Shown here in pieces: positions 4,930-21,513 of a DNA stretch of 64,000 bases; within the stretch, counting starts at the first letter, position 1, and each line of letters begins with the position of its first letter. The stretch is from an uncultured Planctomycetales bacterium. GTDB lineage: Bacteria > Planctomycetota > Phycisphaerae > UBA1845 > PWPN01. The notes beneath the pieces are model-generated. The model was given only the letters and a program-made list of their open reading frames with translations, searched no databases and was not told the DNA's origin. The DNA lies in contig CAZPIO010000008.1 in NCBI GenBank assembly GCA_964586235.1, positions 19,893 through 83,892 of the forward strand, written 5' to 3'. Position numbers and translations under genes: made by a program.

Positions 4930-5841
4930 CTATTTCGACGTTGCGCACCAGGGTCTGATGAACTCGATGAAAAATCGGGCGTAGCGGTCGAGGTTCTCGA
5001 TGTCGCCCCCGCCTCGCAGAGGCGAACACATCTCGAAGCCCACCGCGCCGCGGTAGCCGATCTCACCCAATGCCGTGAAAAACTTCTTGTAGTCAATGAA
5101 CCCCTCGCCGGGCGGCACGGCCCGGATTTCGTCGAGGCAGCGCTCGTAGTTGTTGCCGCGACCGGGATGGTGATACTTGAACCGCGGCCGTCTGACATAA
5201 TCGGCAACCGTCGTATGCACGATCCGCGGGCCCATGTGCCGCACGGCTTGGGCCAGATCGTCCCCGTGGAGGGCCACGGACCATGCGTCGAAACAGGCCT
5301 TGCAGTTGGGCCGGCCGACCTCGTCGATCAGGTCCGCCAGCGAAAGATAGTGGGCGGCGATATCGTCATGATTCTGAACCCCGACGATCACGTCAAACTC
5401 ACCGGCAATGTCGCAGGCCTGACGGAGAAACTCCACGCTGCGTCCCCATTGGGCGGTGTATTCTTCGTGATCGTTGGCCGAGCCGGTGAACAGGCGGAGA
5501 ATACGGGCCCCCAGAAGCCGGGCCATCTCCGCCCACTGCCGGATGGCCATCAACTGCATTTCCGCCAGGGGGGCGAACGGCACGCCGCCGCCGGCACGGC
5601 CTGCACCCGGATCGCCATAGCCCGCCAGGCAGGGCACGCTGAGCCGATGCTTCGAGAGAAGCTCCCGGAGCCGCTCAAGCCGGCGACGATCATAGTCCAG
5701 GGGAGACAGGTGAGGCCGCTTGGTCATGAGCATGACCCCGGAGTAGCCCAAGTCAGACGCCCGAGGGATGAACTCCTCCAGGCTCAGCCGAGCCTGCCCC
5801 CAGAGACCGGCATAACTCACCGAATGGAGAACCGCTTCCAT
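4930..5841 (-). CDS. Sugar phosphate isomerase/epimerase (xylose isomerase-like TIM barrel)
   Basis: 303-aa ORF with family-typical layout (MEAVLHSVSYAGLWG..., 'VGVQNHDD', 'GAVGFEMCSP'). Lies immediately upstream of, and co-directional with, the oxidoreductase. Confidence 0.75.
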   Translation of the reverse strand: MEAVLHSVSYAGLWGQARLSLEEFIPRASDLGYSGVMLMTKRPHLSPLDYDRRRLERLRELLSKHRLSVPCLAGYGDPGAGRAGGGVPFAPLAEMQLMAIRQWAEMARLLGARILRLFTGSANDHEEYTAQWGRSVEFLRQACDIAGEFDVIVGVQNHDDIAAHYLSLADLIDEVGRPNCKACFDAWSVALHGDDLAQAVRHMGPRIVHTTVADYVRRPRFKYHHPGRGNNYERCLDEIRAVPPGEGFIDYKKFFTALGEIGYRGAVGFEMCSPLRGGGDIENLDRYARFFIEFIRPWCATSK

Positions 5842-5892
5842 GAGTAGAACCTCCCATCGTGTGTGGGATCGGCTTTCGACCGGTTGAGCGCG

Positions 5893-6456
5893 TCAGGAAC
5901 CCGAGAGAAACCGCCGCACGCCCGCCTGCAGCGCCTTGGCTCGCTCGGCGGTCATCTCCGCCGGGATCTCGCGGTAGATGTCCGTGATGTCACCAGCCTG
6001 ATCGCGGAGCCGCTCGCAGAACTGGCGGGCCGTCAAACGATCACCCGCGGAGAGTGTCAGACGTTCGCACCACCGCCTGTCGATAAGCAGGTTCCAGTCC
6101 TGCTTGCCAGGCGGAGCGTTCGGCCGATACGAGGTGTCGATAACATCATCACATCTGCCATTGACGTTGTGCTTGCACGGCTTGCAGATGTCGTCCGCCC
6201 CCAGTTCCATGACCAGGGTGATGTCGCGGTGGCTCAGGATCCGCTCGGCCACGGTGTGAACGGCGTGCCCGTACGGGTGCGGCTCAAACTTTTCTCCGCG
6301 ACCGTACGACGTAATGATATCGACGAAGTGATGCGGCTTGATGCGAATCACCCCCTGGTCTCCCGTTGCGCTATGGTTGAGGTCGATGCCGTTCCGGGCG
6401 CCCCCAGCGCAGCCCCAAACAAGACAAGCCAGTACGAACAAGCTCGCGCGAATCAT
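5893..6456 (-). CDS. DUF1284-like Cys/His-rich protein with N-terminal signal peptide
   Basis: 'IRIKPHHFVDII' and 'DDICKPCKHNVNGRCDD' resemble the conserved HH and Cys-cluster motifs of DUF1284. The N-terminus 'MIRASLFVLACLVWGCAGG' looks like a signal or lipoprotein-like leader. Confidence 0.55.
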   Translation of the reverse strand: MIRASLFVLACLVWGCAGGARNGIDLNHSATGDQGVIRIKPHHFVDIITSYGRGEKFEPHPYGHAVHTVAERILSHRDITLVMELGADDICKPCKHNVNGRCDDVIDTSYRPNAPPGKQDWNLLIDRRWCERLTLSAGDRLTARQFCERLRDQAGDITDIYREIPAEMTAERAKALQAGVRRFLSGS

Positions 6457-6918
6457 GGCCTGCGGGCCTCCAGACAGATACAGACATGCACACGCCGGCT
6501 ATCGCGTTCCTCGGGGGCAGCAACAGCATAGATGATCGCCCAAACCGGGTCAACGCCGGTGCCGTCCGGACCCACCCGTCGTCAGATGGTTATGCCTCCG
6601 GCTTCCTGGAGAAGCTCACGCGCCGCCAGGTTCTTCGACTGAATGTAAGAGTGAGACAGGAACGAGCCCGCCCGGAAGGGAGGAGATGCGGGCCTTCAAG
6701 GAGAGGTGATGATTGTGGCGGGAAAGCGTTGGAGACCCGCGGCGGCCGATTAGCCGGGTGACTGCCAGCAGGACGGCATGGGACTCCAGCGCGGAGGATG
6801 AGCACGACAGCGTCCGCGCGGTGACCCGCCGGCTGCGCTCAAGCGGATTCGCCTCCCGCGCTCCGCGGATGTGCTCTGACAGGCGTCGGGCGGCCAGACA
6901 GAGGTGAGCGGAGTCCGC

Positions 6919-9900
6919 TCATGAGCCTATCAGTTTGGCGGCTTCGCTGCGTTCCGCCTCGGTCAATACGCGATGCTCCTGGTCGATCCGCAGGGCTTGC
7001 TCCAACCGCACCTTCGCTGCCTGCGCTTCCTTCAGCTCGCGCAGGACTCTTGCGAGACGAATCGCGGCATGTGCCTGCGTCGAGGGCAGACCCTTGGCGA
7101 GGTCCAGGCAGCGCTCGAGGTCCCTGCGCGCGTCGGTCCACCGCCCCAGGCGCATCAGAATGGCCCCGCGTGTGTCGAGAAGATGCGGGTCATTAAGATA
7201 CCGGGCGGCGGCCTTGTCGGCGATCTCCAGGGCCTCCTGCGGCCTGCCCAACTGTTCGCCCAACAACCATGCCAGGTCATTGCTGGCCCGCTGGTGGAAA
7301 GGCTCCAGTTTGAGGACATCGTGGTATGCAGCAGCAGCAGCCTCCAGGTCGCCTGCCTGCCGCGCCGCCTCCGCCCGTGCGATGTGCCCTTCGGTGTAAT
7401 TCGGGAACGCGGCGACGAGTTCATCGGCGACCTTGCGTGCCGTCAGAACGGCCTGCTGGTCACCCGAATTCACCAGAGCGCTCGCGGCCACCAGCAACGC
7501 CGCCGGCCGATCGGGATTCTCCGAGCGGTAATCCGCCAGAAGCCTGGGGACGGCGTCGAATTCCTTCCGCGCGGCCAGCAGGTTGACGCGGGCGGCGAAG
7601 ACGGCCGGGTTACCCCGGGCCATCGATTCAGCGCTGTCGATGCAGGCTGCGGCCGCCGGCAAGTCTCCGTTCGCGCGGTGCAGATCGGCCAGCATGAGCC
7701 GGGCGGCCGCACTGCCTCGCCCCTCTTCGCTCCGGCAGAACGCGTCAAGATGCTCTATGGCCTCGTTTCGTCGCCCGGAGGCGGTCAGGATCTCCGCCCG
7801 CACAACGTGGAGCATCTCGTGGCCGGGGGCAACCTTCAGCGCGTCGTCATTGAGGGGCATTGCCACGTCGAATTCCCCTGCTTTAACCGCAAGGGTTGTC
7901 AGCAGACCGCAGGCGGCCAGGTTTTTGGCATCCCTGCTCAGTACCGCTCGAGCCAGCGCCCGGGCAACCAGATCGTTGCCTGCCTCGGCCTCGACTTCCG
8001 CTCTCATAAGGAGAAGCCGGGGATTACCGGGGTTGGCTTCCAGCGCCCGATCAAGCCGCTCCTGAGCCTTGGCGGGGTCCCACCGAGCGCGAGCCAATTC
8101 CACAAGCCGCAGGTGAGCATCCACGTTCCCAGGATTCAGCCCGGCAGCGTGCTCGAGAAGTGTCTCCTCCTTACCCAGCCTTTCCCCCATGTCCGCCGGT
8201 TTCGTGTCGGTCGAAAGCAGACCGTTGTGAAGAGCGAGCAGATCGGCGTCATCGGGCGTCTGAGCAAGGAGATCCTCAAGCATCGCCCGGCCCCGGCTTC
8301 GCATCCCGGCTTCCTGGCTGTCCAGAAGCTCCTTCACCAGGCGCTTCTGAAGACCGACCGCGTCCGGGGCTTTCTTCAGCCCGGTCTCCCAGGTGGCGAT
8401 TGCCTTGGCCGAATCGCCGCGGCTGTCGTGGAACCTGCCCAGCAGTTCATAGCCGGCCGCGACCGCGTCCTCCATCTGGGTCAGATGAGCATAGTCGGCC
8501 TCGGCGAGGTCGTACTGCTTCATCGCCTGGTGAAACTGAGCCCGCAGCAGATATGAAGCGAAATCCTTGCGTCGGTCGACTGCCGCGTTCATCACCTCCA
8601 GCGCTTCCTTGTCCCGGCCTTCGGCGTGCAGGATCTCAGCCCGTGCGGACACTGCCCCAAATGAATCCGGCTCAATCGACTGGGCCTCGTCGAGAAGCTG
8701 CATCGCCCTGTTCACATCCTGGCCGGCACCGTAGACCAGCCTGGCCAACACGACCCTCGATGCCGCGTCCTTCGGGTCAGCGGCGACGAGCACCTCGACA
8801 TCCCGGATGGCCGAGTCTGTATCACCTGCCCCAATGGCAACGCTCACTGCCTGCCGTCTCATGTCAGGAAGGGCGCGCATCTGCTCGGGGACCTGCCTCA
8901 GGATCTCCGCGGCGGGCACGTAGCGCCGCTGACGCAGCAGCAGCCGGACGAGCCTCTCGGCCACCTCCGCCTGTGCTGTCTGGGCCTGAAGATACTGCCG
9001 GTAGGTCTGCTCCGCGAGATCGTCCTTGCCGATCAGCTCCTGCATGGCCCCGAGCATCATGACCGGCTGGGCCCAGGCGGGGTCCGCGGCAATGCAGGCG
9101 TTGAGGTGCTCGGCAATCTCCGCCTCCTGCGCCGCCGTCTTGCTCCGCGCCTCATCGGGTGTCCCCTGCGAGGTTGTATGCAGCAGGAGACGGGCCTGCT
9201 CCAGGTGCCATCGGAACGGTCTGTCACCGCCGATTGCTTTCAGCTCGTCGATCAATCCCTGGCTCAGCTTCGAGTCGGACAGCACCTCGGGAATCCGCAG
9301 AAGAGACATTCGGAGATCCAGGTCCTTCGGCCGCTCCGTCGCCAACTGTTGAAGCAACTCGATGCCTTTCGGCCGCTGCCCCTGGGAGAGGAGGAATTGA
9401 GCCAGAGCCTTGGCGGCGAGAACCCTCTCCTCGCCCGCAAGAGCTGAGCACGCTTCCTCCAGAACAGACCGAGCCTCATCTTTTCGCCCGAGACGCACGT
9501 AGAGTTCCGCCAGGGCCATTCGCGGCATGGCCACATCCCCCTGCCGTTGGATGGCCCCTTTCATCAACGCCGCTGCCTTGTCGGCAAGGTTCTTCCGTTC
9601 GTAACACTGCGCCAGCATCAGTTCCGCGGCAAATGGCCGATCGCACTCCTTGAGTGCGGTCTCAAGATCGGCGATCACGTTGTCGAGATACCCCTGGCGG
9701 GCACCGATCGTGGCTTGCAGGAGGCGGACATCCACAGACCGCGGGTACTGCTGGCGCAGGACGGTCAGCTCTCTGAGCAAGTGGCTGCCAACCTCCTGGT
9801 CGGCCCCGCGGGCAAGCCAGACATTGACGCTCAGGCGTATTCGTGCCAGGCTCTTCCCAAGGTCGGCCGGAGATGACTGCTCAGCCAGGGTGGCATACTT

Positions 9901-11364
9901 GAGGGCCTCGCTCCAGCGACCTTCCGCCTGATACGCATCCGCGAGCTGTGAGGCCAGATTGGGATCCTTGGGCCACCGTCCGGCGCTGGTCTCCAGCGCA
10001 TACAGCATCTGCTGCCGGCGGGCAGTCTGACGATATGCCTGAATCAGCATCAGCCAGGCCGCTTTCTTGTCCGGCTTGGCCGCCACAAACGGGCTCAGCA
10101 GGTCAATGACTGCGTCGGGCTTCCCCTCTGCCTCGGCCAATCCCGCTTCAACCATGACGACGTCGTCCTGCAAGGCTTCGCCCGGCTCGATCTTCTCATT
10201 GACCCCTCGGCGGTACTCGTCAACCATCTGGCGGGCTTCATCCAGGAGCCCGCCCAGCAGGTAGGCCCTCACGGCCGTCGGCAGAAACACCAGGCGGTCG
10301 TCGCCGGTCAGCTCGGCGAGGGCCTGGTCCACAGTAACAACAGTCTGTTTCGGATCTCCTTTTCGCCTCGCAAGACTCACGGCGGCCAGGAGGCGCGGCA
10401 GGGCCAGTTCCCGCTTGTCCTTGTCGTGCGAGGCGAGAGTCGCTTCGTCCAGACCCTCCAACAGCCGCAGTTCCGCCTCCGCCCGGGCTACACCGTCTCC
10501 GGGTTGCTCCAGCCACTCCTCGAACAACAGCAGAACCAGATCAGGGTCGGAGGGTTTGAGCGCGTCCACGGCCTCGAGGTCCTTCCTCGCTGCCGCCGCG
10601 TTCCCGCGAACGAGTCTCATGAACTGCGCCCGGCGCACCAGCGGCAGGAGGGAAGCCGGGTTCCTCTGGATGCCCAGCGTCAACAGTTGCTCCGACAGGT
10701 CCGCCGGCTTCGAACTGGCGACTCCTGCCCCGATTGCGAGGACTTCGAGAATGTCCTTCTGCACAGGTGGCGACTCGTCGGCTTGGGCAATGCCCGCCAG
10801 GAGAACGTACGCCTCGGGCGTGGCCGGTTCTTTCTGAACGACGATCTTCAGCTCGCGGGCGGCGTCCGGAAGCTTGCGATACCCGATCAGCGCCTTGGCA
10901 AGCAGCAGGCGCGCTTCCTGGTCGTCCGGGGCTGCGTCCAGGCGCTGCCTGCAGACATAGGCGGCCTCGCTGAATACCCGCACCCGTATGTAGAGTCCGG
11001 CCAACTCGTGGCAGACCTGCGCATCATCCGGCCTGAGCCGCATCAACCTGCGGTACGCCGCGATGGCGGCCAGGGTGTTGGCCTGGGTCCTCGGCCGGAC
11101 GGCCAGGTTCGCTCTTGCGTACCGGCCGAGGACTTCCGGATTCTCGTCCGCGTACCTCGACACGTATACCTTCAATTGCTTGCAGGCCTCAGGCCAATCC
11201 CGGCGGTCGAAGGCAGCCTGGCCGGCAGCGAGGGCTCTGTTTGCCACGACCCGCTTGCGGATCTTGTACCCGCCGACAAACGCGCCCCCCAGGAGAATGA
11301 AGACCAGCCCCAGGATCACCAGGGCCTTGACGTTGATACGGCCGGGCAAAAGCGAATGACGCAT
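6919..11364 (-). CDS. Very large TPR-repeat protein with N-terminal membrane anchor (PrsT-like, exosortase-system associated)
   Basis: About 1481 aa of tetratricopeptide-like repeats (A/L/R/E-rich, repeated 'A..Y..AL...P....A...LA'). TM segment 'ALVILGLVFILLGGAFVGG' follows the ATG at 11364, which has a GAGGA Shine-Dalgarno (SD) sequence just upstream. It is the last gene of the exosortase gene train. Confidence 0.85.
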   Translation of the reverse strand: MRHSLLPGRINVKALVILGLVFILLGGAFVGGYKIRKRVVANRALAAGQAAFDRRDWPEACKQLKVYVSRYADENPEVLGRYARANLAVRPRTQANTLAAIAAYRRLMRLRPDDAQVCHELAGLYIRVRVFSEAAYVCRQRLDAAPDDQEARLLLAKALIGYRKLPDAARELKIVVQKEPATPEAYVLLAGIAQADESPPVQKDILEVLAIGAGVASSKPADLSEQLLTLGIQRNPASLLPLVRRAQFMRLVRGNAAAARKDLEAVDALKPSDPDLVLLLFEEWLEQPGDGVARAEAELRLLEGLDEATLASHDKDKRELALPRLLAAVSLARRKGDPKQTVVTVDQALAELTGDDRLVFLPTAVRAYLLGGLLDEARQMVDEYRRGVNEKIEPGEALQDDVVMVEAGLAEAEGKPDAVIDLLSPFVAAKPDKKAAWLMLIQAYRQTARRQQMLYALETSAGRWPKDPNLASQLADAYQAEGRWSEALKYATLAEQSSPADLGKSLARIRLSVNVWLARGADQEVGSHLLRELTVLRQQYPRSVDVRLLQATIGARQGYLDNVIADLETALKECDRPFAAELMLAQCYERKNLADKAAALMKGAIQRQGDVAMPRMALAELYVRLGRKDEARSVLEEACSALAGEERVLAAKALAQFLLSQGQRPKGIELLQQLATERPKDLDLRMSLLRIPEVLSDSKLSQGLIDELKAIGGDRPFRWHLEQARLLLHTTSQGTPDEARSKTAAQEAEIAEHLNACIAADPAWAQPVMMLGAMQELIGKDDLAEQTYRQYLQAQTAQAEVAERLVRLLLRQRRYVPAAEILRQVPEQMRALPDMRRQAVSVAIGAGDTDSAIRDVEVLVAADPKDAASRVVLARLVYGAGQDVNRAMQLLDEAQSIEPDSFGAVSARAEILHAEGRDKEALEVMNAAVDRRKDFASYLLRAQFHQAMKQYDLAEADYAHLTQMEDAVAAGYELLGRFHDSRGDSAKAIATWETGLKKAPDAVGLQKRLVKELLDSQEAGMRSRGRAMLEDLLAQTPDDADLLALHNGLLSTDTKPADMGERLGKEETLLEHAAGLNPGNVDAHLRLVELARARWDPAKAQERLDRALEANPGNPRLLLMRAEVEAEAGNDLVARALARAVLSRDAKNLAACGLLTTLAVKAGEFDVAMPLNDDALKVAPGHEMLHVVRAEILTASGRRNEAIEHLDAFCRSEEGRGSAAARLMLADLHRANGDLPAAAACIDSAESMARGNPAVFAARVNLLAARKEFDAVPRLLADYRSENPDRPAALLVAASALVNSGDQQAVLTARKVADELVAAFPNYTEGHIARAEAARQAGDLEAAAAAYHDVLKLEPFHQRASNDLAWLLGEQLGRPQEALEIADKAAARYLNDPHLLDTRGAILMRLGRWTDARRDLERCLDLAKGLPSTQAHAAIRLARVLRELKEAQAAKVRLEQALRIDQEHRVLTEAERSEAAKLIGS

Positions 11365-11771
11365 GACTGGTTCCTCTGAACAGACGATCTGATGGAAGAC
11401 CTGTTGTGCAGGTCGGCAATCCAGCGGCCTGACGCGGCAGGGACTGGGAACAGGTAATCGGCGGGTGACCCGGTCGAGGGGCAAGCGACGCGAAGGAGAC
11501 CGGCTGGGCGCGGGTGTCCTCCGGGATCAGCGGGCAGAACCATTCACCGGAAGGACGGCGCGAGAATAGGTGCGGGGCCGGCGTCCAGCGCCGGTGGATA
11601 TCCCCTCTGCCCCTCGTCTAAACACGAATTGCACAGCGAAAGACCTATCGCGGGTGTCGAGCTAATCTCCGACGCATGGGAGGTCCGGAGGGTTTCAGTG
11701 AAAAGCATGCCGGCCTGTACTGCAAACACGCTCGATGCGAAATGCCCTGGACCCGTGGCATACGCGGCAAG

Positions 11772-12671
11772 TCATTCCACCTGGAGGTCCACCTCGCGGT
11801 GCGAGGCCACCTTGAACTCGACGCAGCCGTAGACTGTCTCCGTCGCTTCAACCGTCTGGCGGTAGATATCCGCCTTCGCGAAATCGGTGTAGCCGAAATC
11901 CATCAATGCATTCACCATCTCCGCCGGCACGGTGAACGAGCCATTGTCCTCCGCCTCGCAGACAAGTCTCACCGGCCAGATCTCCTCCTGGTCGATGCTG
12001 ATCGTCAGCACGATGCTGCCCTCGTCGTCCCCGGACGGCGTCCACGAGACCGTCAGCGGCTGGTCATACCGCAGGACCCACGATTCGTCGAGGATCTCGA
12101 GCGGGGTCACGCCGAATCCGTGGAGCGTAAACCCGGCGATGTCGCCGCCCTCGGCGATCAACTCAACGCAGGCGTCGGAGTCGAATGCGGGATGGGGTAG
12201 CGGATTGTCGAGGTAGGTGTTGCCAGGGACGCTCGGCTCCATGGTGACGCGCTCGCTCAGACCTTTGACGACGACGGTGCCCACGCTCAGCGAACTGGGA
12301 TAGGGAATGCACGTCCCGTCGTAGTTGCATGTGGTCCCGGGAGAACAGGAAGGCTCACAAATGGGGGCGACTTCCCACAGCAGAACGCAATCGCCGCTCT
12401 CACTGACCTTCTGAAGGATCGTGGCCGGCACGACCCCATCGGCAACCTCACCCGAAAGAACCGAATAGCCCTCCTCGTGCATGACACTGAAAGAGCCGAT
12501 CTTCTCGCCTGCCGCGCAGGTGGTCCCCGACGTCGCTCCCTGGCAGTCGGCGAGGTTGTCGCCGGGATCCGGGTTGTCAGGAGGGGGATTCGGGCCGTCT
12601 GAGGGGCTGGGGCCGCACGCGGCCAGAGCCAGCATGGACGTTGTCATCAGCAGGAAGGCAAGGAATCGCAT
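11772..12671 (-). CDS. Cys-rich secreted lipoprotein, unknown function
   Basis: Lipobox 'SMLALAAC' followed by a Pro/Asp/Asn linker (GPSPSDGPNPPPDNPDPGDN). The ATG at 12671 has GGAG 9 nt upstream. Co-directional with the PEP-CTERM genes. Confidence 0.65.
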   Translation of the reverse strand: MRFLAFLLMTTSMLALAACGPSPSDGPNPPPDNPDPGDNLADCQGATSGTTCAAGEKIGSFSVMHEEGYSVLSGEVADGVVPATILQKVSESGDCVLLWEVAPICEPSCSPGTTCNYDGTCIPYPSSLSVGTVVVKGLSERVTMEPSVPGNTYLDNPLPHPAFDSDACVELIAEGGDIAGFTLHGFGVTPLEILDESWVLRYDQPLTVSWTPSGDDEGSIVLTISIDQEEIWPVRLVCEAEDNGSFTVPAEMVNALMDFGYTDFAKADIYRQTVEATETVYGCVEFKVASHREVDLQVE

Positions 12672-12867
12672 GGGCGTCACCTCCGGGTCCTGATCCGGCT
12701 CGCGTCAACGGTCTCGATACGGGCGGACCTTCTGGACAGGCCGCGCCCGTCCCGGATCGCATCTCCGTCAAACTCGAATTCCACGGCCATAGCATACTGT
12801 TCGCCCGCCTCCCGACCACAACCTGGCCGGGAGACGGGCGATCACAATCAAAACGAACTTCGCAACC

Positions 12868-13434
12868 TCAGGTAAACCGCCGTTTGACCCAGCCGATCAG
12901 GCTGAAGCCCAACAGGCCAAGCAAGACGGCACCAGGGACGGGAACAACCGTGACAACAGGAGGAGCCGGAGGGTCCGGCGGCAGGGGGCCCGAACCAGAG
13001 CCTCCCGGAAGAGCATCGAGGCCGCCGCGGTTATCCACGACGCCGCTCGTTTGCCAGGAACCGGCCAGCCAGCTATTGGCCCGGTCGATGACGCTGCTCG
13101 ACCCGCCGCCAGCCACGGACAGATCGCCGTTGATCAGGGAGTATGTGCCGCTACCCTCATACATGATCTCCCAGATCGCGAGCTGAAAGGCCTGGCGGTC
13201 CGTCGCATCCTGGTTGCCGTCAGAGAGCTGATTGGAGTAGGCGCCGTAGAAGCGCTGCAAGCGATCGGTCCTGGTTCCACCCATCCGCTGCCCGACCCGG
13301 GTGATGTCAACGGACGTGATGCTGCCGCCCTTGGAGGTCAGGGCGCTCGCGTAATAGTCCGCCCGCGCGACGGCCGGACACAACCCGAGGACCAGGGCTG
13401 CGACGGTGGCCATGATGGCTTTGATCGCAGTCAT
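12868..13434 (-). CDS. PEP-CTERM sorting-domain protein (exosortase substrate)
   Basis: Signal peptide 'MTAIKAIMATVAALVLGLCPAVARA'. The extreme C-terminus 'VVPVPGAVLLGLLGFSLIGWVKRRFT*' is a P-x-P motif plus TM helix plus basic tail, i.e. a PEP-CTERM signal. Strong SD (AAAGGAGAGG) sits before the ATG at 13434. Confidence 0.9.
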   Translation of the reverse strand: MTAIKAIMATVAALVLGLCPAVARADYYASALTSKGGSITSVDITRVGQRMGGTRTDRLQRFYGAYSNQLSDGNQDATDRQAFQLAIWEIMYEGSGTYSLINGDLSVAGGGSSSVIDRANSWLAGSWQTSGVVDNRGGLDALPGGSGSGPLPPDPPAPPVVTVVPVPGAVLLGLLGFSLIGWVKRRFT

Positions 13435-13504
13435 GCAGCCTCTCCTTTTGTTGTCTGCCCGCCGGCTTCCGGCAGACGACCGCAACTCAGAAATCGAACG
13501 GCGC

Positions 13505-14239
13505 TCACGCAAAGCGTCTCTTAATCCAGCCGATCAGGCCGAAGCCGATCAGACCCAGCAGCACCGCCGCGGGGGCGGGTACCGGCCTGATGGACTCGAC
13601 CATCACGACCATGTCCTGGAAATCCTTGTCGGACTGATCGAACGCGACCTCCTCAAAGGCAATGATGTACTCATCCACCCCGAAGGTACCGGCGGCGTAG
13701 GGCGGAATCTGGAGCACGGTTGAGCCGTCGCCCCGATAAATAAGGGCTTGAGCATTCCCCCCGGGGTTAAGCACGTCTTGCGAGTAGAACGTGGCCCTGG
13801 GTACGCCCAGATAAAAGCCGAACGCTGAGCCGAAGCCGGAGGCCATCACGGTACCGTTGACCATGATGTCGCCGTTCGCCAGAAAGGCTATGAGAGCGAT
13901 CGCTCCTTGCCCCTGTGCACCAGCGAACACTTCGGCTTTGTTGGCGGGGTCAGCGATGTCATAGAGTCCGAACGTGTTGGCGCCCGGATTGGCTGCGAGT
14001 TCGATGATCATCGTGGCAACGGACCCGCCGGATGCACCACTCGAGAACGCCGCAAAGGGCGTCTGATCGGCAATCGCATCGATCCCGCCCGATACGGTGA
14101 TGCTGTCAAAAACCTCCTGAAGATTGTTGTCAACCCCATTGTCGCCCAACGGGCTGATCGGGCGGTTGTTGTAGTAGGGGTCTGCGTAGGCGGTTGCCGC
14201 CACCATCAGCAGAACGCCCATAATGGTCATTGTTTTCAT
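13505..14239 (-). CDS. PEP-CTERM sorting-domain protein, DUF4114-like passenger
   Basis: Signal peptide 'MKTMTIMGVLLMVAATAYA'. C-terminus 'IRPVPAPAAVLLGLIGFGLIGWIKRRFA*' is a PEP-CTERM signal. 'FGFYL...FYSQDVLNPGG' and an acidic 'FEEVAFDQSDKDFQDMVVMVE' stretch resemble DUF4114. The ATG at 14239 has a GAGGA SD. The 153 codons further upstream in the track ORF are compositionally non-protein-like. Confidence 0.88.
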   Translation of the reverse strand: MKTMTIMGVLLMVAATAYADPYYNNRPISPLGDNGVDNNLQEVFDSITVSGGIDAIADQTPFAAFSSGASGGSVATMIIELAANPGANTFGLYDIADPANKAEVFAGAQGQGAIALIAFLANGDIMVNGTVMASGFGSAFGFYLGVPRATFYSQDVLNPGGNAQALIYRGDGSTVLQIPPYAAGTFGVDEYIIAFEEVAFDQSDKDFQDMVVMVESIRPVPAPAAVLLGLIGFGLIGWIKRRFA

Positions 14240-14423
14240 TTCACGTATCCTCTTCGTTTTCCCGTTTCGCGCCGTTCCCGGGTTACCGGAAACAACGCCG
14301 TTGAAATCTGTCTTCGTCGCTGCACTGCCTGCCCGTTTGTGCCCCGCCTTGTCAGCAGCGGAACTGTCATCAAAAGAGGCGGCCGGACAAGTCAGCAAAG
14401 AGAGAACCCGACCGGGCTCAGTT

Positions 14424-15062
14424 TCAAGAAACGCTCGGAGGCCCGCGAGGAGCGGTAACGGGAAGGAAGAATTGCTGTTCGCATCGCGAGCAAGGCTCGC
14501 GCAGGTACTCGTGGAAAGCCGGGGTGTTGTCCGGCACGCCCGCCGCCGCCATCTCGGCCGTGAAGCAGACCGGCATGTCCGCCAGGTCAAAGTCAAACAC
14601 GACCGCGTGGGCAATCTGCTCGGGGCAGGCGTCGTGGTACCAGGCCGGCAAATGGCCCATGTGCACGTTGCGGGCCTTGCGGGCCAGGTGCAGGGCACCG
14701 GCGCTCAAGACCGCCGAAAGGAACAGGCTGGAACTGCCCGGCAAGGCGGGCACCTGCCAGATGTGATCGTTCGTGCTGGCCGGGATACCGGTGTCGGAGG
14801 GGGTCTCGCTGGTAATCTGCTCGCTCGTCCGGCCCGAGGAACCTTCAAGCCAGAACAGAGACTCGGCCGTTGTGGCAGAGGCCTCGCGGCCGGCCGTCGC
14901 TTCCGTCTGAGCAAGTGCAGGCAGGGACGTCACCAGGCTGCCGCTGACCACGGAGGATCGTACCAGAGGCGCGCAGACCGGATCCGCGCTCGCGGATTGC
15001 ACGACACCCGCTACCGAAAAAACCAACAGGATGGATCGAACGATCCTCAACCGGTACCTCAA
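14424..15062 (-). CDS. Secreted/membrane protein with an internal PEP-CTERM-like signal followed by a ~80-aa Cys/His-rich tail
   Basis: Signal peptide 'RIVRSILLVFSVAGVVQSASA'. Ser/Thr-rich spacer. 'VPALPGSSSLFLSAVLSAGALHLARKARN' (P-x-x-P, TM helix, basic cluster) sits at residues ~104-132 of 212, then a tail containing HDAC, PVCF and PCSRC. Only TTG starts are available (15062 or 15050). Confidence 0.5.
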   Translation of the reverse strand: MRYRLRIVRSILLVFSVAGVVQSASADPVCAPLVRSSVVSGSLVTSLPALAQTEATAGREASATTAESLFWLEGSSGRTSEQITSETPSDTGIPASTNDHIWQVPALPGSSSLFLSAVLSAGALHLARKARNVHMGHLPAWYHDACPEQIAHAVVFDFDLADMPVCFTAEMAAAGVPDNTPAFHEYLREPCSRCEQQFFLPVTAPRGPPSVS

Positions 15063-15486
15063 CTCAGTTCACCGATTCCCCTGGCGCGAACTGTGCGCGG
15101 ACACCACCAAAGATACCCTACAGTCTATCCCACCCCGACTGCACCGTCAACGGAATTGCGCCCGCCTTCGGGAAAAAACTTGCCTCGCCGACCGTAACAA
15201 TACTATCCGAGCGATGAAAACCTGAAGCTGGCGGCAGCTCGCCAACCGCGGTAAACCACAATGGGAAGGCATGCTAATCTTGCTTCGTAAACGCTTTGCG
15301 ACTGCCAGGCCCGGGCACGCGGGCGATATCCCGGCTGCGGCATCCTGTTGCCCGCCCGGTTTTGTTATGACGTGCCTGCCATCTCGCATCGGGACCGGCT
15401 TTTTGTCGTTCTTATTCTCACAGGCGCTCACAGCGGCGTCCGTCGCCGCCGCCGCCAGGCACCGGCGGGGGCTGCCACGTCGCCTC

Positions 15487-16503
15487 TCATGACCCGACCG
15501 GTCGCCCATTCTTGTCCTCAATATGGAGCAGTGAAAGGATACGCAGTTCAACGACCAGACCCAGGAGGGCGAGCGGCATCATCGCAAAGCCCGCGAAGTC
15601 GTGGAAGAACTTCTCGGCAAACCTGCTGCCGACCGCGATCAGCAGGAACACGGTCACAACCGCCCTCGCCCAGTTGCACAGGATGGCAATGGGTATGCTC
15701 GAACAGAGCAGGATGAACTTCTGCCAGGGTGGCCGCTGGATGATGTAGGCCATGCCGGCGGCAACGGCCACGAAAGCGGTCAGCATCCTGAGCCCGCTGC
15801 AGGCCTCCGCAACGCCGATCCGAAGGTTGTCGTTCACCACCATCACGTGCCCTTCCTGCACCACGGTGATGCCCAGGAGTTCCAGGGTCATCACCGTCCC
15901 GGTGGTGGCGAGCAACTGCAGCGGTCCGGAGACGAGATTGTGTACTCTGCCCGGCAACGGGACCATCAGGAACAGGAACAGCAGGACCCAGAATGTCTTG
16001 CGGAATACCTCCCGGCCGCCAATCAGCAGTACGAGCCCCGCAATCATCACGACAAGCGAATACCGTTCGGCGGACTCGAAGAGCGCGACCATACCGAAGG
16101 CCCGTCCCAGAAGGGCCAGGATGATGATCGCCAGCCCCCACAACGAAGGCTGAACGGTGCACTGGGCCAGTGTCTTCCGATCGGTCCAGAGCAGAGCGAT
16201 CGCCACCAGCGGAATCAGCCCGCCGACTGAGTAGTTGTCATCCGTTCGCCATTCACTGATGAGGGAACTGATCACCGGCCAGTAAGACCAGAGCAGCGCT
16301 GCGAGCACCCCTGCGACGCCGAGCCATCGAGCGCCGAGGCGGACCGATGCATCGATCTGCCACCTGCGGGCCACGGAACAACTGGTATGTGTGCCGGTCA
16401 TTTTCTTGCGGTCTCCATGCGCCTTGCGACGGCGGCCTGCTCGGAGCGCCACCTGAGGTGGCCGACTCGTTCGTCTCAGCGGCGAGGTCGTTATGTGCGA
16501 CAT
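15487..16503 (-). CDS. Exosortase (EpsH/Xrt family transpeptidase)
   Basis: Polytopic membrane protein carrying the catalytic signatures 'AEACSGLRML' (Cys), 'ILCNWARAV' (N..R) and 'FHDFAGFAMMP' (His). The ATG at 16503 is preceded by an AGGAGGA SD. Confidence 0.92.
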   Translation of the reverse strand: MSHITTSPLRRTSRPPQVALRAGRRRKAHGDRKKMTGTHTSCSVARRWQIDASVRLGARWLGVAGVLAALLWSYWPVISSLISEWRTDDNYSVGGLIPLVAIALLWTDRKTLAQCTVQPSLWGLAIIILALLGRAFGMVALFESAERYSLVVMIAGLVLLIGGREVFRKTFWVLLFLFLMVPLPGRVHNLVSGPLQLLATTGTVMTLELLGITVVQEGHVMVVNDNLRIGVAEACSGLRMLTAFVAVAAGMAYIIQRPPWQKFILLCSSIPIAILCNWARAVVTVFLLIAVGSRFAEKFFHDFAGFAMMPLALLGLVVELRILSLLHIEDKNGRPVGS

Positions 16504-16545
16504 ATCGTTGCTCCTCCTGAAGCGGCATCGAGGAATGAGGAGGGC

Positions 16546-17292
16546 TCAGGGGTTTACGCGATCAGGTATCGAGGTGACCGCGGGGTCCGTACCGCCCACA
16601 GCGTCGGCGAGTAGACGGCGAATGAGCGGCGCTGAACCGACGGTCAGGTCAAGAAGATACTTTTCTGTCTCATATGCGGCGCTGTCGGGGCAGGTCAACT
16701 GTATTTGCGCGGAATAGCTGCCGGCGGTGTCCGCCCGCCACGCCTTGGACCGCAAGAGCGACACATCCGGACAGTAGCGGCCGTCGACGATGTAGTAGTT
16801 CAGTACCAGTATCTTCTCGGAGGTGAGGGTGCCCTTGTGGAATCGCAACAACCGGCAAGGGATCGGCGAGCCGTCGGCTCCTTTGAGTTCGAGCGACCGG
16901 CTGTCATCCAGTGTCCAGCCCGCGCCCGGGTAGCAGACCTCCGGACGGTGAGGGGAAAGGTCTCGCAGACGCACGCCATAGGCCACGAACAGGGACACCG
17001 CCTGGCTTCCGCCCCTTCGCTTGTACAGGCGGTTAATGAGGTCATCCGTGTTCGTCTTCCGCACGATCCGCTCTTCCATCGGGGTGTCCTCGCCAACCCA
17101 ATCGCCGATGTGAACCGGCAATTTCGCGAGCGTGCCCTTGGGAATCGGAACGCTGGTGGGCGGCCGTGAGTAGTACGCCGCCAATGCTCGAAAACCGCCG
17201 CCGGTCAGCAGCAGAATGACAACGCCGACCGTGATCGCAATGAAAAACGATCGGCCGGTCAGCTCGGGGCGCTTGGTAATCTCAGCTTTCAT
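16546..17292 (-). CDS. epsI: EpsI-family exosortase-associated protein
   Basis: Single N-terminal TM (FFIAITVGVVILLLTGGGF) and the EpsI hallmark 'HRPEVCYPGAGW'. Sits directly upstream of the exosortase. The ATG at 17292 has a GGAGAAGG SD. Confidence 0.88.
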   Translation of the reverse strand: MKAEITKRPELTGRSFFIAITVGVVILLLTGGGFRALAAYYSRPPTSVPIPKGTLAKLPVHIGDWVGEDTPMEERIVRKTNTDDLINRLYKRRGGSQAVSLFVAYGVRLRDLSPHRPEVCYPGAGWTLDDSRSLELKGADGSPIPCRLLRFHKGTLTSEKILVLNYYIVDGRYCPDVSLLRSKAWRADTAGSYSAQIQLTCPDSAAYETEKYLLDLTVGSAPLIRRLLADAVGGTDPAVTSIPDRVNP

Positions 17293-17719
17293 GATGGCCT
17301 TCTCCGACAACCGCCTTCGCGGCAATGCTCTCCCATGGTCATGACGGGCAACCGTGCCTCAGCGTGCGGGAGCGAGCAAACTTATGCATCCGGAGATCGC
17401 GGCCGCTCGTCACGGATAACCACCACCAACGATTCTTGCCCCGGACAGCAGGACGGCGTGTCCGCGCGGGCGCGATCCCGATAACCTTCTGACCGCTTTT
17501 TCGGGGGTGGCTTGGCCGGCAGATCAGCCGTTTCGTCACCCGGCCGGTCTGATAAGCCACCGCACCGGCAGCTCGAATCGAAGTGCCTCATTGATGACGG
17601 TCTGTTTCGGCCCGAGAAACTTGTCCGGGAGCAACGCGTGACGATATAGGCAACGCAGCTTTTATATCCGGTCTCCCCACCGCGACCGGTCTGAGCCGCT
17701 TACCAGACACAATCTTATT

Positions 17720-17748
17720 TTGCCTATACCACCTACATTTACTATATT
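17720..17748 (+). promoter_or_regulatory. Candidate sigma70-type promoter (TTGCCT-N17-TATATT) for the large lipoprotein gene
   Basis: Read directly in the only AT-rich patch of the 17.3-17.9 kb divergent intergenic region. The consensus used is the E. coli-type one, which may not apply to this lineage. Confidence 0.3.
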
Positions 17749-17943
17749 CTATCGACTTTGACTAGATCTCGTCAGACTGGGGCAACTGACGCGATTGGGG
17801 GAGAGGGAAGCATGGATCTTCGACGATCACCCGGCCGGCCTTGCTGTCAAGACAGGCACTCTCGCATCCGACAGTCCGTCGTCAGCCTATTCGTCTCGTC
17901 CCGAGGAAGCCGCAACCCAAGCTTGTTCACTCCGTGTGGGGGT

Positions 17944-20900
17944 GTGCTGCGCCGGCTTGGCCAACTCGGTCTCCGCTTCGCACTGCTGATTGCCTGCGCG
18001 GGACAGACGTGCATGCAACCGGGTGAGGACGTCGGCGGATACCACCCCAGGAACCCTCGCGCTGGCGACGTGATCGATCCAAACCCAGACAACACAATCG
18101 ACCCGGCTTCAGTCAACGTGATGGCCGATGCCGGAGAGGACCAGACTGTCGATGAAGGCACACAGGTTGGGCTTGACGGCAGTCTCAGCACCGGCGATGG
18201 AGCGTTAAGCTACACTTGGTTCCAGGTTGCCGGAACCACGGTCGAACTCAGCGGCTACGATCAGCCGATGGCCAGCTTCACGGCCCCCCCGCCTTTGGCT
18301 GAGAGCGAAGTGTTACAGTTTCGACTGATGGTTCGCGTCAACACAGACGTTGCGGACGGCGTCTCGGTCCAGCCCGTTGTTAAGAGCGATACCGACGATG
18401 TCCAGGTGGTCGTCAGGGGGTTGGACTTTGATGGCGACGGATTGGCGGGTGCGGCGGACAACTGTCCGCAGGTGTCCAACCCAGCCCAGGAAGACGCCGA
18501 CGGCGACGGTGCGGGTGATGCGTGCGACCTCTGCCCGAATGATGCGGCCAAGACCGAACCCGGTCTGGCCGGGTGCGGCAATCCGGAACCGGCCGACCCG
18601 TCTGCTGTGGATAGTGACGACGACGGCGTTCCAGACGACACTGACAACTGTCCCGACACGCCAAACGCCGACCAGGCCGACTGCGACACGAATGGTGTAG
18701 GAAATGCCTGCGAAGCTGTACCCACCCCGCTCGTGACGGTATCGTGGAGCCCGGCCAGTCCAACAGCAGGCGATGCGGTGACGTTCCAGGCCAATCCGGC
18801 CGCCTCCGAAACGAGCTGTGTTCTGGACTGGTATCTCGCCAACGGGGGCAGGCTGACCTGGGATTTCGGCGACGGCAAGATTGCGGAAGGAAATCCGGTG
18901 TCCACAGCCTACGATTCTTCAGGTACGTACACGGTTAAGGTCACCCTGGTATTGACCGCGTTGGGCCTGGGCACGTTAAGCTGTGACCAGGGTCTGACCG
19001 ACGGCTCCTGCAAACAGGTCTCGGTCCCGGAGCGCGGCGCCACGGTCGTGCCGATCATCGCGGACGTCGCGGATCACACCGCGGCAGTCGGAGTCGCTTA
19101 CACCAGCAGCCCGACACTGACCCAGGGGACGGCACCGGTGACCTGGTCTCTCGTCGCCGGCCCGGCCAACATGACCGTCAACACGACCACCGGCCAGGTA
19201 TCCTGGCCCAACCCGGTGGCGGGCACTCACACGGTGACGATTCGCGCCGCCGGCACGACCGGCAGTGACGATGAGACGTGGGTTCTGACCGTCCAGGCCC
19301 TGCCCGTAATCGCGGATGTTCCGGACCACTCGGCCGTGGCCGACAGTCCTTACAGCCGCAGCCCGACGCTGACTCAGGGATCTACACCGGTCACCTGGTC
19401 GCTGGTATCGGGACCGTCCGGCGTCACGGTCAACGCGAGCACCGGTGCCGTGGCCTGGCCGAGCCCCGTGGTCGGCGCAAGCACCATCACGATTCGCGCC
19501 ACTAATGCCATCGGCAGCGATTATGAAAGCTGGACGCTGACCGTCTCGGCGAGCGCGCCGGTCATCGCGGATGTTCCGGATCACACGACCACGACCGGTC
19601 TGGCTTACAGCCGCACGCCGACCCTGGCGCAGGGCAGCATCCCCGTGACCTGGTCGCTGGTCAGCGGTCCGGCGGGGATGTCGGCCAACCCGAGCAGCGG
19701 CATTGTTTCCTGGCCCAGCCCGACGGTGGGCACCCACAGTGTGACCATTCGTGCCACCAACGGCGGCGGAAGTGACGATGAAATCTGGGCACTGACGGTC
19801 GTGCCGATCGGCAACTTCGCGATCATCTCGGGCAAGGTCACCCGCGTCATTACCGGCGGCGGCACGGCCCCGGTCGGTAACCTTGATCTGACATTCAGCG
19901 GCAGTGGCCCCTCGACCGGGCAGAATGTCACAGCCACCACAGCGGCCGACGGCTCGTACTCGGCCCTGGTTCCCCTCGGCTGGACAGGCAGGGCAGCCGC
20001 GACGGATCCCGACACGTGGCGGCTTACGCCGGCCAGCCTGAGCTTCACGGACGTCCGAACCGCACGCCCGAGCCAGCACTTCGCTGCCGCGCGGAACTAC
20101 TACGTCGCAACCACGGGCCGCGACACCGCTGACGGCACACTTGGGCGTCCGTTCGCAACTCCAAAGCGGGCGGCTTCCGCGGTGGAACCGGGAGACACGG
20201 TGTTCTTCCGCGGCGGGACCTATCGCGAGGCAACATCGACCCAGCAAGTTGTGCCCGTAATGGAAGTACTCAAGAGCGGCGCGGAAGGACATCTCATCAC
20301 CTTCAGGAATTATGGGAACGAGGTGGCGGTGTTCAGCGGTAGCATTCCGTCCATGCCCGGCAGCAAGAAGTTCGATGCGATCAGAACGGGTACGTACCCC
20401 AGCGACACGGCCAGCGCCTCGGGCAGCGGAGTCTCGTATCTCCACTTCGAAGGCCTGATCTTCGAGGATACGGCGCGGGCGGGGATTCTGGTCTGTGGTC
20501 CGGCGGCCAAGCTCGGCTTCGAGTTGCCCGGTCCGCCCGCGATCCGCATCACGATACGCCGCTGCGTTTCACGGGGCGGCGCCGGCTGGGGCTTCCTGAC
20601 CAGAGGCAAATGCAGCGAGATCATCATCGAACTCTGCGAAGCTTACAACCACTGGCAGACCGGCATCTTCCTCGGAAGAGTGTCCAAAACATACGACGAT
20701 GGTCTGCCGGAAGCGGATCGCAACACCGCAAGCTACAGCGAGATCCGCGACTGCCTTGCGCACAACAACGTGAACCCGGCCACCCCGGGCAATACGGATG
20801 GGCTCGGTGGAAGCCACACCTGGCGATGCGCGTTCAAGGACAACGTCGTGTTCACCAACAGCGATGATGGAATCGACATCTATGCGTCAATCGAGGCCGC

Positions 20901-21513
20901 CATCTCCGGCAACATCGTATTCGACCACAACCATCCGGACGGGAACGGATGCGGTTTCAAGATCAGCGCGGGTGGCGGCGGCAGGCACACCGTGTCACGC
21001 AACATCGCCCTGAACAACAAGGCCTGGGCATTTGAAACGTCGAACCCGAGTAATCCGCTGACGCCCTACTACGCAAACAGCTTCTACAACAACCTGGCGT
21101 ATGCCAACGGTCGCGACGCCTTCTGCCTGGGCAGCAACGCGGTCACGGGTGTCTGGATTCTCTCCAATAACATCACGCTGGCCGGTCTCACCCGGGACTA
21201 CAAGGTCTATGATCCGAAGATCACCAATTCAGACCACAACTTCATGCGGCAGTCGGACCTTCTACTTCTCCAGCAGAATGGAGACGATCTCCATTCGCGC
21301 ACTGGTGACGCGGCCTTCTCGAACCCGGGGACGGCTATCGACACCAACTTCGTCTCAGGCTGGAGCATCGAGCAGCGGTTGGAGCACGTCCGGTCGCAGG
21401 TTCGGGCGCGGTTCACGCTCAAGGCGTCTTCACCGTGCATCGACGCCGGCACCGACGTGGGTCTTCCGTTTCTCGGCAATGCCCCGGACATGGGACCGTA
21501 CGAGGCACGGTAG
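17944..21513 (+). CDS. Large multidomain lipoprotein: thrombospondin type-3 repeats, PKD domain, 3 tandem Ig-like (cadherin/dystroglycan-type) repeats, C-terminal right-handed beta-helix
   Basis: The GTG at 17944 gives 'MLRRLGQLGLRFALLIACAGQTC', a lipobox leader (an alternative ATG lies at 17811). TSP3 calcium-binding repeats 'DFDGDGLAGAADNCPQVSNPAQEDADGDGAGDACDLCPND' and 'DSDDDGVPDDTDNCPDTPNADQADCDTNGVGNAC'. PKD-like 'TWDFGDGKIAEGNPVSTAYDSSGTYTVKVTL'. Beta-helix coils in the last ~450 aa (e.g. NTDGLGG, SDDGIDIY, ISGNIVF). Confidence 0.85.
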   Translation: MLRRLGQLGLRFALLIACAGQTCMQPGEDVGGYHPRNPRAGDVIDPNPDNTIDPASVNVMADAGEDQTVDEGTQVGLDGSLSTGDGALSYTWFQVAGTTVELSGYDQPMASFTAPPPLAESEVLQFRLMVRVNTDVADGVSVQPVVKSDTDDVQVVVRGLDFDGDGLAGAADNCPQVSNPAQEDADGDGAGDACDLCPNDAAKTEPGLAGCGNPEPADPSAVDSDDDGVPDDTDNCPDTPNADQADCDTNGVGNACEAVPTPLVTVSWSPASPTAGDAVTFQANPAASETSCVLDWYLANGGRLTWDFGDGKIAEGNPVSTAYDSSGTYTVKVTLVLTALGLGTLSCDQGLTDGSCKQVSVPERGATVVPIIADVADHTAAVGVAYTSSPTLTQGTAPVTWSLVAGPANMTVNTTTGQVSWPNPVAGTHTVTIRAAGTTGSDDETWVLTVQALPVIADVPDHSAVADSPYSRSPTLTQGSTPVTWSLVSGPSGVTVNASTGAVAWPSPVVGASTITIRATNAIGSDYESWTLTVSASAPVIADVPDHTTTTGLAYSRTPTLAQGSIPVTWSLVSGPAGMSANPSSGIVSWPSPTVGTHSVTIRATNGGGSDDEIWALTVVPIGNFAIISGKVTRVITGGGTAPVGNLDLTFSGSGPSTGQNVTATTAADGSYSALVPLGWTGRAAATDPDTWRLTPASLSFTDVRTARPSQHFAAARNYYVATTGRDTADGTLGRPFATPKRAASAVEPGDTVFFRGGTYREATSTQQVVPVMEVLKSGAEGHLITFRNYGNEVAVFSGSIPSMPGSKKFDAIRTGTYPSDTASASGSGVSYLHFEGLIFEDTARAGILVCGPAAKLGFELPGPPAIRITIRRCVSRGGAGWGFLTRGKCSEIIIELCEAYNHWQTGIFLGRVSKTYDDGLPEADRNTASYSEIRDCLAHNNVNPATPGNTDGLGGSHTWRCAFKDNVVFTNSDDGIDIYASIEAAISGNIVFDHNHPDGNGCGFKISAGGGGRHTVSRNIALNNKAWAFETSNPSNPLTPYYANSFYNNLAYANGRDAFCLGSNAVTGVWILSNNITLAGLTRDYKVYDPKITNSDHNFMRQSDLLLLQQNGDDLHSRTGDAAFSNPGTAIDTNFVSGWSIEQRLEHVRSQVRARFTLKASSPCIDAGTDVGLPFLGNAPDMGPYEAR
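19045..19806 (+). repeat. Three tandem ~255-bp coding repeats (Ig-like modules 'P(V/I)IADVPDH...PTLTQG..PVTWSLVSGP...TIRATN..GSD.E.W.LTV')
   Basis: The repeat units begin near 19045, 19301 and 19558. Conservation between the units is visible at both the DNA and protein level. Confidence 0.85.

Follow-up and report, generated by a model that had tools for sequence, protein, structure and literature searches.

Exosortase systems are catalogued by subfamily, each with its own sorting signal. For the XrtD/VPLPA-CTERM system (TIGR04152, TIGR03370), the 400-bit cut-off of the enzyme model implies a protein in which exosortase and EpsI are fused. The canonical XrtA/PEP-CTERM system of Proteobacteria combines an exosortase and EpsI beside a large extracellular polysaccharide (EPS) locus with diverse small secreted cargo and a dedicated tetratricopeptide repeat (TPR) protein, PrsT, which is described as a lipoprotein, and these systems have sigma-54 sites (PMC1569441). 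Here we describe a stretch of 64,000 nucleotides (hereafter the window) from an uncultured Planctomycetales bacterium (contig CAZPIO010000008.1, positions 19,893 to 83,892), the minus strand of which carries an exosortase gene together with a separate epsI gene, two genes for tailed cargo proteins, a giant TPR protein and a protein here called atyp. We regard it as likely that this locus is an instance of a widespread, unnamed exosortase sorting system of Phycisphaerae, the closest named relative of which is XrtD/VPLPA-CTERM. By profile hidden Markov model (HMM) score and motif skeleton the nearest system is XrtD/VPLPA-CTERM, by neighbourhood it is XrtA, and the locus fits the definition of neither; the fixed partners peculiar to the clade are an anchored TPR protein of about 1500 aa and atyp.

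With XrtD/VPLPA-CTERM the locus shares the skeleton of a V-P-x-P-[AG] motif free of glutamate, whereas its EpsI is separate and encoded upstream, its hosts belong to another phylum and its partners are the TPR protein of about 1500 aa and atyp. Similarly, the likeness to the XrtA/PEP-CTERM/PrsT system (PMC1569441) lies in the exosortase and EpsI beside a large EPS locus, in the diverse small secreted cargo and in the dedicated TPR protein; the differences are that PEP is missing and that the TPR protein is a transmembrane-anchored polypeptide of 1481 aa, in contrast to the lipoprotein PrsT with its model of 899 positions.

Coordinates were taken from an open reading frame (ORF) listing in six frames and from direct reading of the minus strand, and labels of the type L001 denote fetched related loci. 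On the minus strand the order is epsI, exosortase, a 424-bp gap, atyp, cargo1, cargo2, a Cys-rich lipoprotein and the TPR protein, which is the order given in the initial annotation, and nearly all of its coordinates were confirmed. Its description of an exosortase module with a separate EpsI, tailed cargo, a lipoprotein, a very long PrsT-like TPR protein and an adjoining XrtA-style EPS operon likewise holds. The module comprises:

16546-17292, minus strand: epsI, stand-alone, 248 aa from an ATG, the ORF reaching back to a TTG at 17325
15487-16503, minus strand: exosortase, an ORF of 338 aa (304 aa from 16401)
15063-15486: gap of 424 bp between exosortase and atyp
14424-15062, minus strand: atyp, 212 aa, or 208 aa from 15050, with an N-terminal signal peptide
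14240-14423, minus strand: spacer between atyp and cargo1, about 185 nt
13505-14239, minus strand: cargo1, 244 aa, with signal peptide, passenger domain and the tail RPVPAPAAVLLGLIGFGLIGWIKRRFA
12868-13434, minus strand: cargo2, 188 aa, with signal peptide, passenger domain, Pro-rich linker and the tail VVPVPGAVLLGLLGFSLIGWVKRRFT
11772-12671, minus strand: Cys-rich lipoprotein, 299 aa, with lipobox LAAC and 11 Cys
6919-11364, minus strand: TPR protein, 1481 aa

An exosortase below the cut-offs of the named subfamilies

The window exosortase passes the family-level HMMs (PF09721, 196.5 bits against a cut-off of 25.7; TIGR02602, 153.2 against 105.55), and the failure of exosortase models on 15487-16503 that the initial annotation had allowed for did not occur. 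Three residues, Cys235 (in AEACSG), Arg280 and His301 (in FFHDF), numbered along the 338-aa ORF, are invariant across 16 aligned clade members; the invariant Cys, Arg and His of exosortases constitute the putative catalytic triad (PMC1569441). At the level of the named Xrt subfamilies the protein falls below all cut-offs, with 161.5 bits against 208 for XrtA (TIGR03109), 159.6 against 400 for XrtD (TIGR04152) and 157.7 against 425 for XrtW. The ten clade relatives that were tested also missed every subfamily cut-off, their XrtA scores being 151-176 bits (cut-off 208); for all ten, XrtD was the top model, with 165-192 bits, 10-30 bits above XrtA, the match being limited to the N-terminal half of that model. 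Clade members carry in NCBI only the label "exosortase/archaeosortase family protein".

EpsI passes its own models (TIGR02914, 50.2 bits against 42.8; PF11984, 83.4 bits), and its best match in NCBIfam is the C-terminal half of the XrtD model (profile positions 248-409, 55 bits). For comparison, 80 loci were kept from species-representative genomes, all of them metagenome-assembled genomes of Planctomycetota and mostly labelled Phycisphaerae; as in the window, epsI lies directly upstream of the exosortase gene in 76 of these 80.

The start of the exosortase gene is ambiguous. The ATG at 16503 gives 338 aa, and relatives with 85-86% identity have been called at 303-304 aa, from which it follows that Met35 at 16401 (304 aa) is likely the true start. 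Initiation there would widen the spacer between epsI and the exosortase gene from 42 to 144 nt.

A probable sorting tail without glutamate

Both cargo proteins combine an N-terminal signal peptide with a tripartite C-terminus made of a motif, a transmembrane helix and a basic cluster, as read from the sequence, and their tails are exactly those quoted in the initial annotation, where they were called PEP-CTERM tails. That name does not hold: the motifs, VPAPAA and VPVPGA, contain no Glu and the HMM scores are sub-threshold, so that a failure to score as PEP-CTERM, by which the annotation would formally be refuted, is what was found. Despite the failed HMMs, genomic context rescues the tails as sorting signals. 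In a sample made up of the 80 fetched loci plus the loci from initial neighbourhood comparisons, 105 ORFs from 50 loci terminate in [VI]P[VA]P[GA]A-x-LLG-x-LGL...G-x-K(R/L)R(K)F(A), and all of them lie on the exosortase strand, downstream of the enzyme gene. PEP occurs in only 5 of the 105 clade tails and Glu is absent from 100. The tails of the window thus belong to a clade-wide, Glu-less VPxP[GA]A variant, in which a Gly/Leu-rich transmembrane helix and K-R-R-F come after the motif, and not to strict PEP-CTERM.

The two cargo proteins had been taken for paired paralogs. When they were compared by BLASTP, the sole shared stretch consisted of 19 tail residues with 84% identity, and since nothing detectable is shared beyond the tail they are not paralogs. 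One conserved tail on otherwise unrelated passengers is what classically marks a sorting signal. The passenger of cargo1 is weakly similar to DUF4114/NF038129 and is conserved in L018, L022, L048, L063, L077 and L078; that of cargo2 is unrelated to it and carries a QLAIWE motif.

Passengers of the cargo2 type (window, 12868-13434; L003, 13055-13843) keep the motif as (F/M)QLAIWE(I/V).Y, and in the L003 homologue a CID motif is found upstream of it. The QLAIWE motif resembles the TQxA(I/V)W motif of thioester-domain adhesins. Cargo2 was considered as such an adhesin and the assignment is not supported, as neither cargo2 nor its L003 homologue matches the Pfam thioester domain and mature cargo2 has no Cys.

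Fixed partners of the clade

More than 1556 homologues of the exosortase were found, and relatives are encoded in 369 species-representative genomes, so that the module, which had been singled out as unusual for being "compact", is not an oddity. Module statistics were drawn from 43 non-redundant loci with at least 9 kb of sequence downstream of the exosortase gene. A TPR gene is present in 28 of the 43 (at least 1200 aa in 26), at least one cargo tail in 27 and atyp in 21, and TPR protein, cargo and atyp occur together in 19; the commonest order is xrt, atyp, one to five cargo genes, TPR. The recurrence of this gene set in dozens of independent loci is more than chance would give. A homologue of the Cys-rich lipoprotein was seen only in L005, an 80%-identity relative, and the lipoprotein matched no family in the library profile searches; it is an accessory gene specific to the lineage of the window.

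The best NCBIfam match of the TPR protein is PrsT (TIGR02917), at 214.7 bits and thus below the cut-off of 312.2, and it falls in five stretches within residues 779-1348 of the long ORF, besides many Pfam TPR matches. The protein is a distant relative of PrsT. The initial annotation was correct in finding it longer than PrsT, 1481 aa against a model of 899 positions or about 1.6 times the model length, but wrong in treating this as peculiar to the locus. Except for two ORFs that reach the end of the fetched sequence, the long TPR partners measure 1444-1601 aa, so that 1481 aa is the norm for the clade. The N-terminus, MRHSLLPGRINVK (with RINVK), is followed by a transmembrane helix and then KIRKR, and has no lipobox Cys; a transmembrane anchor without lipobox is found in 32 of 35 TPR homologues. 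In the window (11326-11364) and in about 32 loci the N-terminal peptide, M..R..(R/K)(I/V)N(V/I)K, is highly conserved, with K(I/V)RKR or RQIRR after the helix. This peptide and the basic box seem to point to a specific cytoplasmic contact.

The gene at 14424-15062 is present as the initial annotation had it, under the name "atypical signal protein", and was then passed over, though its product is the most distinctive component of the module. The atyp protein is built of a signal peptide, a variable periplasmic segment of about 80 aa, an LPxxPGS motif, a conserved transmembrane helix, an Arg cluster and a conserved cytoplasmic tail of about 80 aa with the motifs P-x-W-Y-H, Q-I-G-H, D, C and a C-terminal P-R-G-P-P plus three residues. 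Next to the membrane P105 is conserved in 96% of members, P108 in 98% and S110 in 88%; the helix has the fixed small residues L113 and G122 and is followed by R128. In the tail P139 and W141 reach 100% and Y142, H143, P147, G151, H152, D157 and C166 about 90% or more. Searched with an atyp profile, 1.84 billion cluster representatives yielded at least 636 clusters (50% identity) at E<=1e-3 and 411 at E<=1e-10; among the 150 matches listed, lengths were 122-291 aa, most being 180-240 aa. No match was obtained when 122 members were compared with Pfam and NCBIfam, when the family profile was compared with PDB, or when the window atyp was compared with PADLOC.

Moreover, in 52 of the 54 cases with enough downstream sequence, a gene for a tail-bearing cargo protein directly follows atyp; this count pools genome loci with metagenome contigs found from atyp itself (query, an alignment of 15 sequences). 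Atyp is thus a large unannotated family tightly coupled genetically to the cargo genes. The unit of atyp and cargo is repeated two to three times in L056 (CAZQTW010000051), L091, L102 and L115, which suggests that the two duplicate together as a cassette. In loci of the Sedimentisphaerales type (for example L042, L043, L045, L059 and L079), atyp is without LPxxP and reads ..DGPGS.., followed by the Cys-containing helix LCLYALIGLGLC, and in the same loci the cargo tails shift from ...VGWVKRRFA to ...AGIKLRKFA. As motif and tail shift together, the divergence runs in parallel across lineages.

AlphaFold2 models of atyp reached a predicted local distance difference test (pLDDT) score of 44 with an alignment of 9 sequences and of 63 with 122 sequences, with confidence confined to the signal helix and the transmembrane helix (110-130). 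Strong conservation of the tail with no predicted structure suggests linear motifs that fold on a partner. In our interpretation atyp may serve the cargo cassette as a dedicated accessory or regulatory subunit in the membrane. Its N-terminus would lie outside, followed by the transmembrane helix and an apparently unstructured cytoplasmic tail; through the conserved helix it would contact the exosortase complex, and through the tail a cytoplasmic partner. It is conceivable, although we think it rather doubtful, that atyp is an unrecognised dedicated component of the exosortase, its juxtamembrane LPxxPGS motif, helix and tail allowing it to dock as a pseudo-substrate or to be cleaved, and so coupling sorting to a cytoplasmic read-out, which could be feedback on cargo expression or on EPS synthesis. 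If atyp were a regulatory or adaptor subunit of this kind, it would be the first described for any exosortase.

Predicted expression signals of the cargo cassette

The following signals were predicted around the cargo genes:

15122-15150, minus strand: sigma-70-like promoter candidate, TTGACG-17 nt-TAGACT, from a consensus scan
14404-14419, minus strand: terminator-like hairpin with a T-rich tail, just 3' of the atyp stop, from a consensus scan
13453-13480, minus strand: intercistronic stem-loop without a U-run, between cargo1 and cargo2, from folding
12809-12833, minus strand: second stem-loop, 3' of cargo2, from folding

The promoter candidate in the 424-bp gap precedes atyp by about 60 nt. 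L001 and L005 share its two hexamers and their 17-nt spacing, while the sequence of the spacer has diverged. A scan for sigma-54 sites (TGGCAC-N5-TTGC, at most two mismatches) gave a number of matches below the chance expectation, none of them upstream of atyp or of the cargo genes, unlike the proteobacterial XrtA systems (PMC1569441). The consensus scan that found the terminator-like hairpin after atyp gave sites no more numerous than in shuffled sequences.

The stem-loop without a U-run that had been noticed between the cargo genes is present at 13453-13480. It reads GUCGUCUGCCGG-AAG-CCGGCGGGCAGAC, is GC-rich with 9+3 bp, and stands 8 nt upstream of the Shine-Dalgarno sequence of cargo2 (AAGGAG); its z-score is -1.13 in an 81-nt context and -2.34 in a 57-nt context. 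In L001 and L005 a hairpin occupies the equivalent position but has another stem sequence (z from -2.3 to -3.3). The hairpins of the three sequences were folded separately because indels misaligned them in MAFFT, which left RNAalifold covariation uncountable. At the second stem-loop, the 60 nt after the cargo2 stop fold at -24.6 kcal/mol (z = -3.7). A survey of related loci recorded the fraction of genes with a structure of z<-2 in the 60 nt after the stop codon:

cargo genes: 28% (n=139)
atyp genes: 25% (n=64)
xrt genes: 8% (n=92)
TPR genes: 5% (n=37)
generic ORF ends: 5% (n=150)

Post-stop structure differs between cargo genes and generic ORF ends with p=1.7e-6 (Mann-Whitney), and the hairpin of the window exemplifies a general pattern, in which stem-loops are enriched after cargo and atyp genes. 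Intercistronic stem-loops that give the segments of a polycistronic operon different mRNA stabilities are known, for example from pap or puf. The present hairpins resemble that type in being stable, in lacking a U-run and in standing directly 3' of structural (cargo) genes, where they are enriched; they differ in that what is available here is a statistical enrichment, in 25-28% of genes, derived from sequence alone. The suggestion that the stem-loop tunes relative cargo expression is plausible, and the idea would generalise across the clade. The cargo cassette is probably transcribed from its own sigma-70-type promoter in the 424-bp gap. The stem-loops that follow atyp and each cargo gene probably determine how abundant the mRNA segments are relative to one another.

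The spacer between atyp and cargo1 is strongly conserved as DNA among the window, L001 and L005, for example in CTTTGCTGACTTGT and in CAGCGACGAAGACAGATTTCAACGGC..GTTTCCGG. The coding sequence for the N-terminal part of atyp looks less well conserved than this spacer, which may act as a cis-regulatory leader of the cargo genes. When 5000-23000 was scanned with Rfam, the only match was a chance one to mir-637 (E=0.056).

Competing interpretations

Following the general exosortase/archaeosortase model, the cargo would be exported by Sec and retained by its tail in the inner membrane; the exosortase would cleave at or near VPxPGA through Cys235, the passenger would then be handed to a surface or EPS-linked acceptor, and the TPR protein would act as a scaffold. 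Several points weigh against the reading of the locus as a distinct sorting system of this kind. Cleavage, transfer and surface display of the cargo are predictions from the general model. As for the tails, cargo1 stays below the PF07589 cut-off (16.8 against 20.7) and cargo2 has no PF07589 match, isolated tails of the window do not match TIGR02595 even at E<=10, and neither do isolated tails match the VPLPA-CTERM model TIGR03370 at E<=10, a search in which HMMER speed filters may hide weak matches. In fifteen of the 43 full loci the 10 kb downstream contain neither a TPR nor an atyp nor a cargo gene, which makes the linkage of exosortase and module frequent and not obligatory. For the atyp tail, AlphaFold2 gives no fold and no secondary structure (pLDDT 54-69). 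An internal cargo sorting signal in atyp was sought with an HMM of 134 distinct cargo tails and rejected; this model scores atyp at no more than 4.5 bits and misses that of the window, so that mimicry of a substrate is without sequence support and the likeness is purely architectural. Both flanks of the TPR transmembrane helix carry a net charge of about +3.4, and under the positive-inside rule such equally basic flanks make the topology ambiguous, with a periplasmic or a cytoplasmic array. In addition, the promoter and terminator-like sites are predictions from consensus matches, and conservation of the hairpin between cargo1 and cargo2 comes from just two independent lineages.

Three other interpretations were weighed. 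The locus could be a true member of XrtD/VPLPA-CTERM whose fused EpsI domain was split off into a gene of its own, which we hold to be unlikely. It would account for XrtD being the top-scoring model in all ten relatives tested and tying with XrtA for the window exosortase, for the match of EpsI to XrtD profile positions 248-409, and for the resemblance of V-P-[VA]-P-[GA]-A to V-P-L-P-A, the latter being the motif as read from the family name. However, the roughly 160-190 bits of the exosortase and the 55 bits of EpsI amount together to only about 55-60% of the 400-bit cut-off, and TIGR03370 misses the tails even at E<=10. The position of epsI is also reversed, upstream of the exosortase gene, whereas the EpsI region follows the exosortase region in the XrtD model, and a simple gene split is therefore insufficient. 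To our knowledge the giant TPR protein and atyp are not part of XrtD systems. A canonical XrtA/PEP-CTERM system as in Proteobacteria (EpsH, EpsI, PrsT and PEP-CTERM cargo) is quite improbable in our estimate. The tails of the window lack a PEP tripeptide, the DNA upstream of the cargo genes holds no sigma-54 site, and a scan of window ORFs revealed neither PrsK nor PrsR; a transmembrane helix anchors the TPR protein, which is not a lipoprotein and is about 1.6 times as long as the PrsT model. What recalls XrtA is the adjoining EPS operon with its XrtA-style markers (TIGR03108 at 654.6 bits, an stp2-like GT4, an AMP ligase and a Wzc-like kinase), the place of XrtA as nominally the top subfamily match of the window exosortase (161.5 bits), and PrsT as the best NCBIfam match of the TPR protein; yet every one of the XrtA-system models remains sub-threshold (XrtA, 161.5 against 208; PrsT, 214.7 against 312.2; amidotransferase, 654.6 against 816.9), and XrtD outscores XrtA in 10 of 10 relatives.

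It could finally be supposed that the tailed proteins are ordinary C-terminally anchored proteins of the inner membrane, that their adjacency to the exosortase gene is incidental and that the hairpins are chance GC-rich structures. Against the failure of the tails on curated sorting-signal HMMs, which would be expected on this account, stand 105 tails of one consensus, co-oriented downstream of a clade exosortase in 50 loci of different species, and near-identical tails borne by unrelated passengers. The weak z-score of the first hairpin in its 81-nt context and the 15 of 43 loci without downstream cargo would also fit, but the enrichment of hairpins is specific to cargo and atyp genes, and we consider such a coincidence very improbable.

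For the preferred reading, that of an unnamed Phycisphaerae system nearest to XrtD/VPLPA-CTERM, the consequences concern annotation above all. Phycisphaerae degrade polysaccharides and are abundant in sediments, anaerobic digesters and marine snow. As NCBIfam has no subfamily model for the clade and its VPxP[GA]A tails score sub-threshold, the surface proteomes of Phycisphaerae would be systematically under-annotated. The signal, the enzyme clade and the fixed partners (upstream EpsI, TPR protein of about 1500 aa and atyp) provide a basis for new models and for the prediction of surface proteins. Atyp is a concrete candidate for a missing accessory or regulatory part of exosortase-mediated sorting, and is the part of the module most worth following up.

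Genomic surroundings

The module is flanked, on the side of epsI, by a divergent gene and an EPS operon:

17758-21513, plus strand: putative lipoprotein, divergent, 1251 aa, with TSP3, PKD, He_PIG and a pectate-lyase-like beta-helix
21639-43124, minus strand: EPS operon, upstream of the module on the same strand

The lipoprotein gene on the opposite strand had been called unrelated to the module. A divergent large PKD/Big/beta-helix gene is likewise found in L001, L003, L004, L005, L015, L022 and L027 and in L033, L038, L039, L060, L067, L075 and L084, highly divergent in sequence between loci. Its occurrence in the same position in about a dozen other loci makes it a recurrent neighbour and not an unrelated insertion.

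The EPS operon, which is of the Wzx/Wzy type, encodes an AMP-dependent ligase, a DUF362-like protein, stp2-like GT4 glycosyltransferases, an XrtA-type amidotransferase (TIGR03108, 654.6 bits, below the cut-off of 816.9), a flippase, a Wzc-like co-polymerase/tyrosine kinase, WecG, WecA and a heparinase-like protein. The ORFs of the ligase (21639-23291) and of a DUF362/Npun_F2552-like protein (23068-24648) overlap by about 220 nt when taken as maximal ORFs, and in L001 the ligase region is apparently fused to a glycosyltransferase (918 aa).

The remainder of the window, 43200-64000, holds typical planctomycete genes for glycan degradation and the cell envelope, and none of its gene products bears a VPxPGA tail. 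Besides a WXXGXW-repeat protein and a protein similar to glycoside hydrolase (GH) family GH65, it encodes:

45823-46734: Zn-peptidase
47811-51458: DUF748-like protein, 1215 aa
56053-57732: sulfatase
59753-62482: rhamnosidase-like GH

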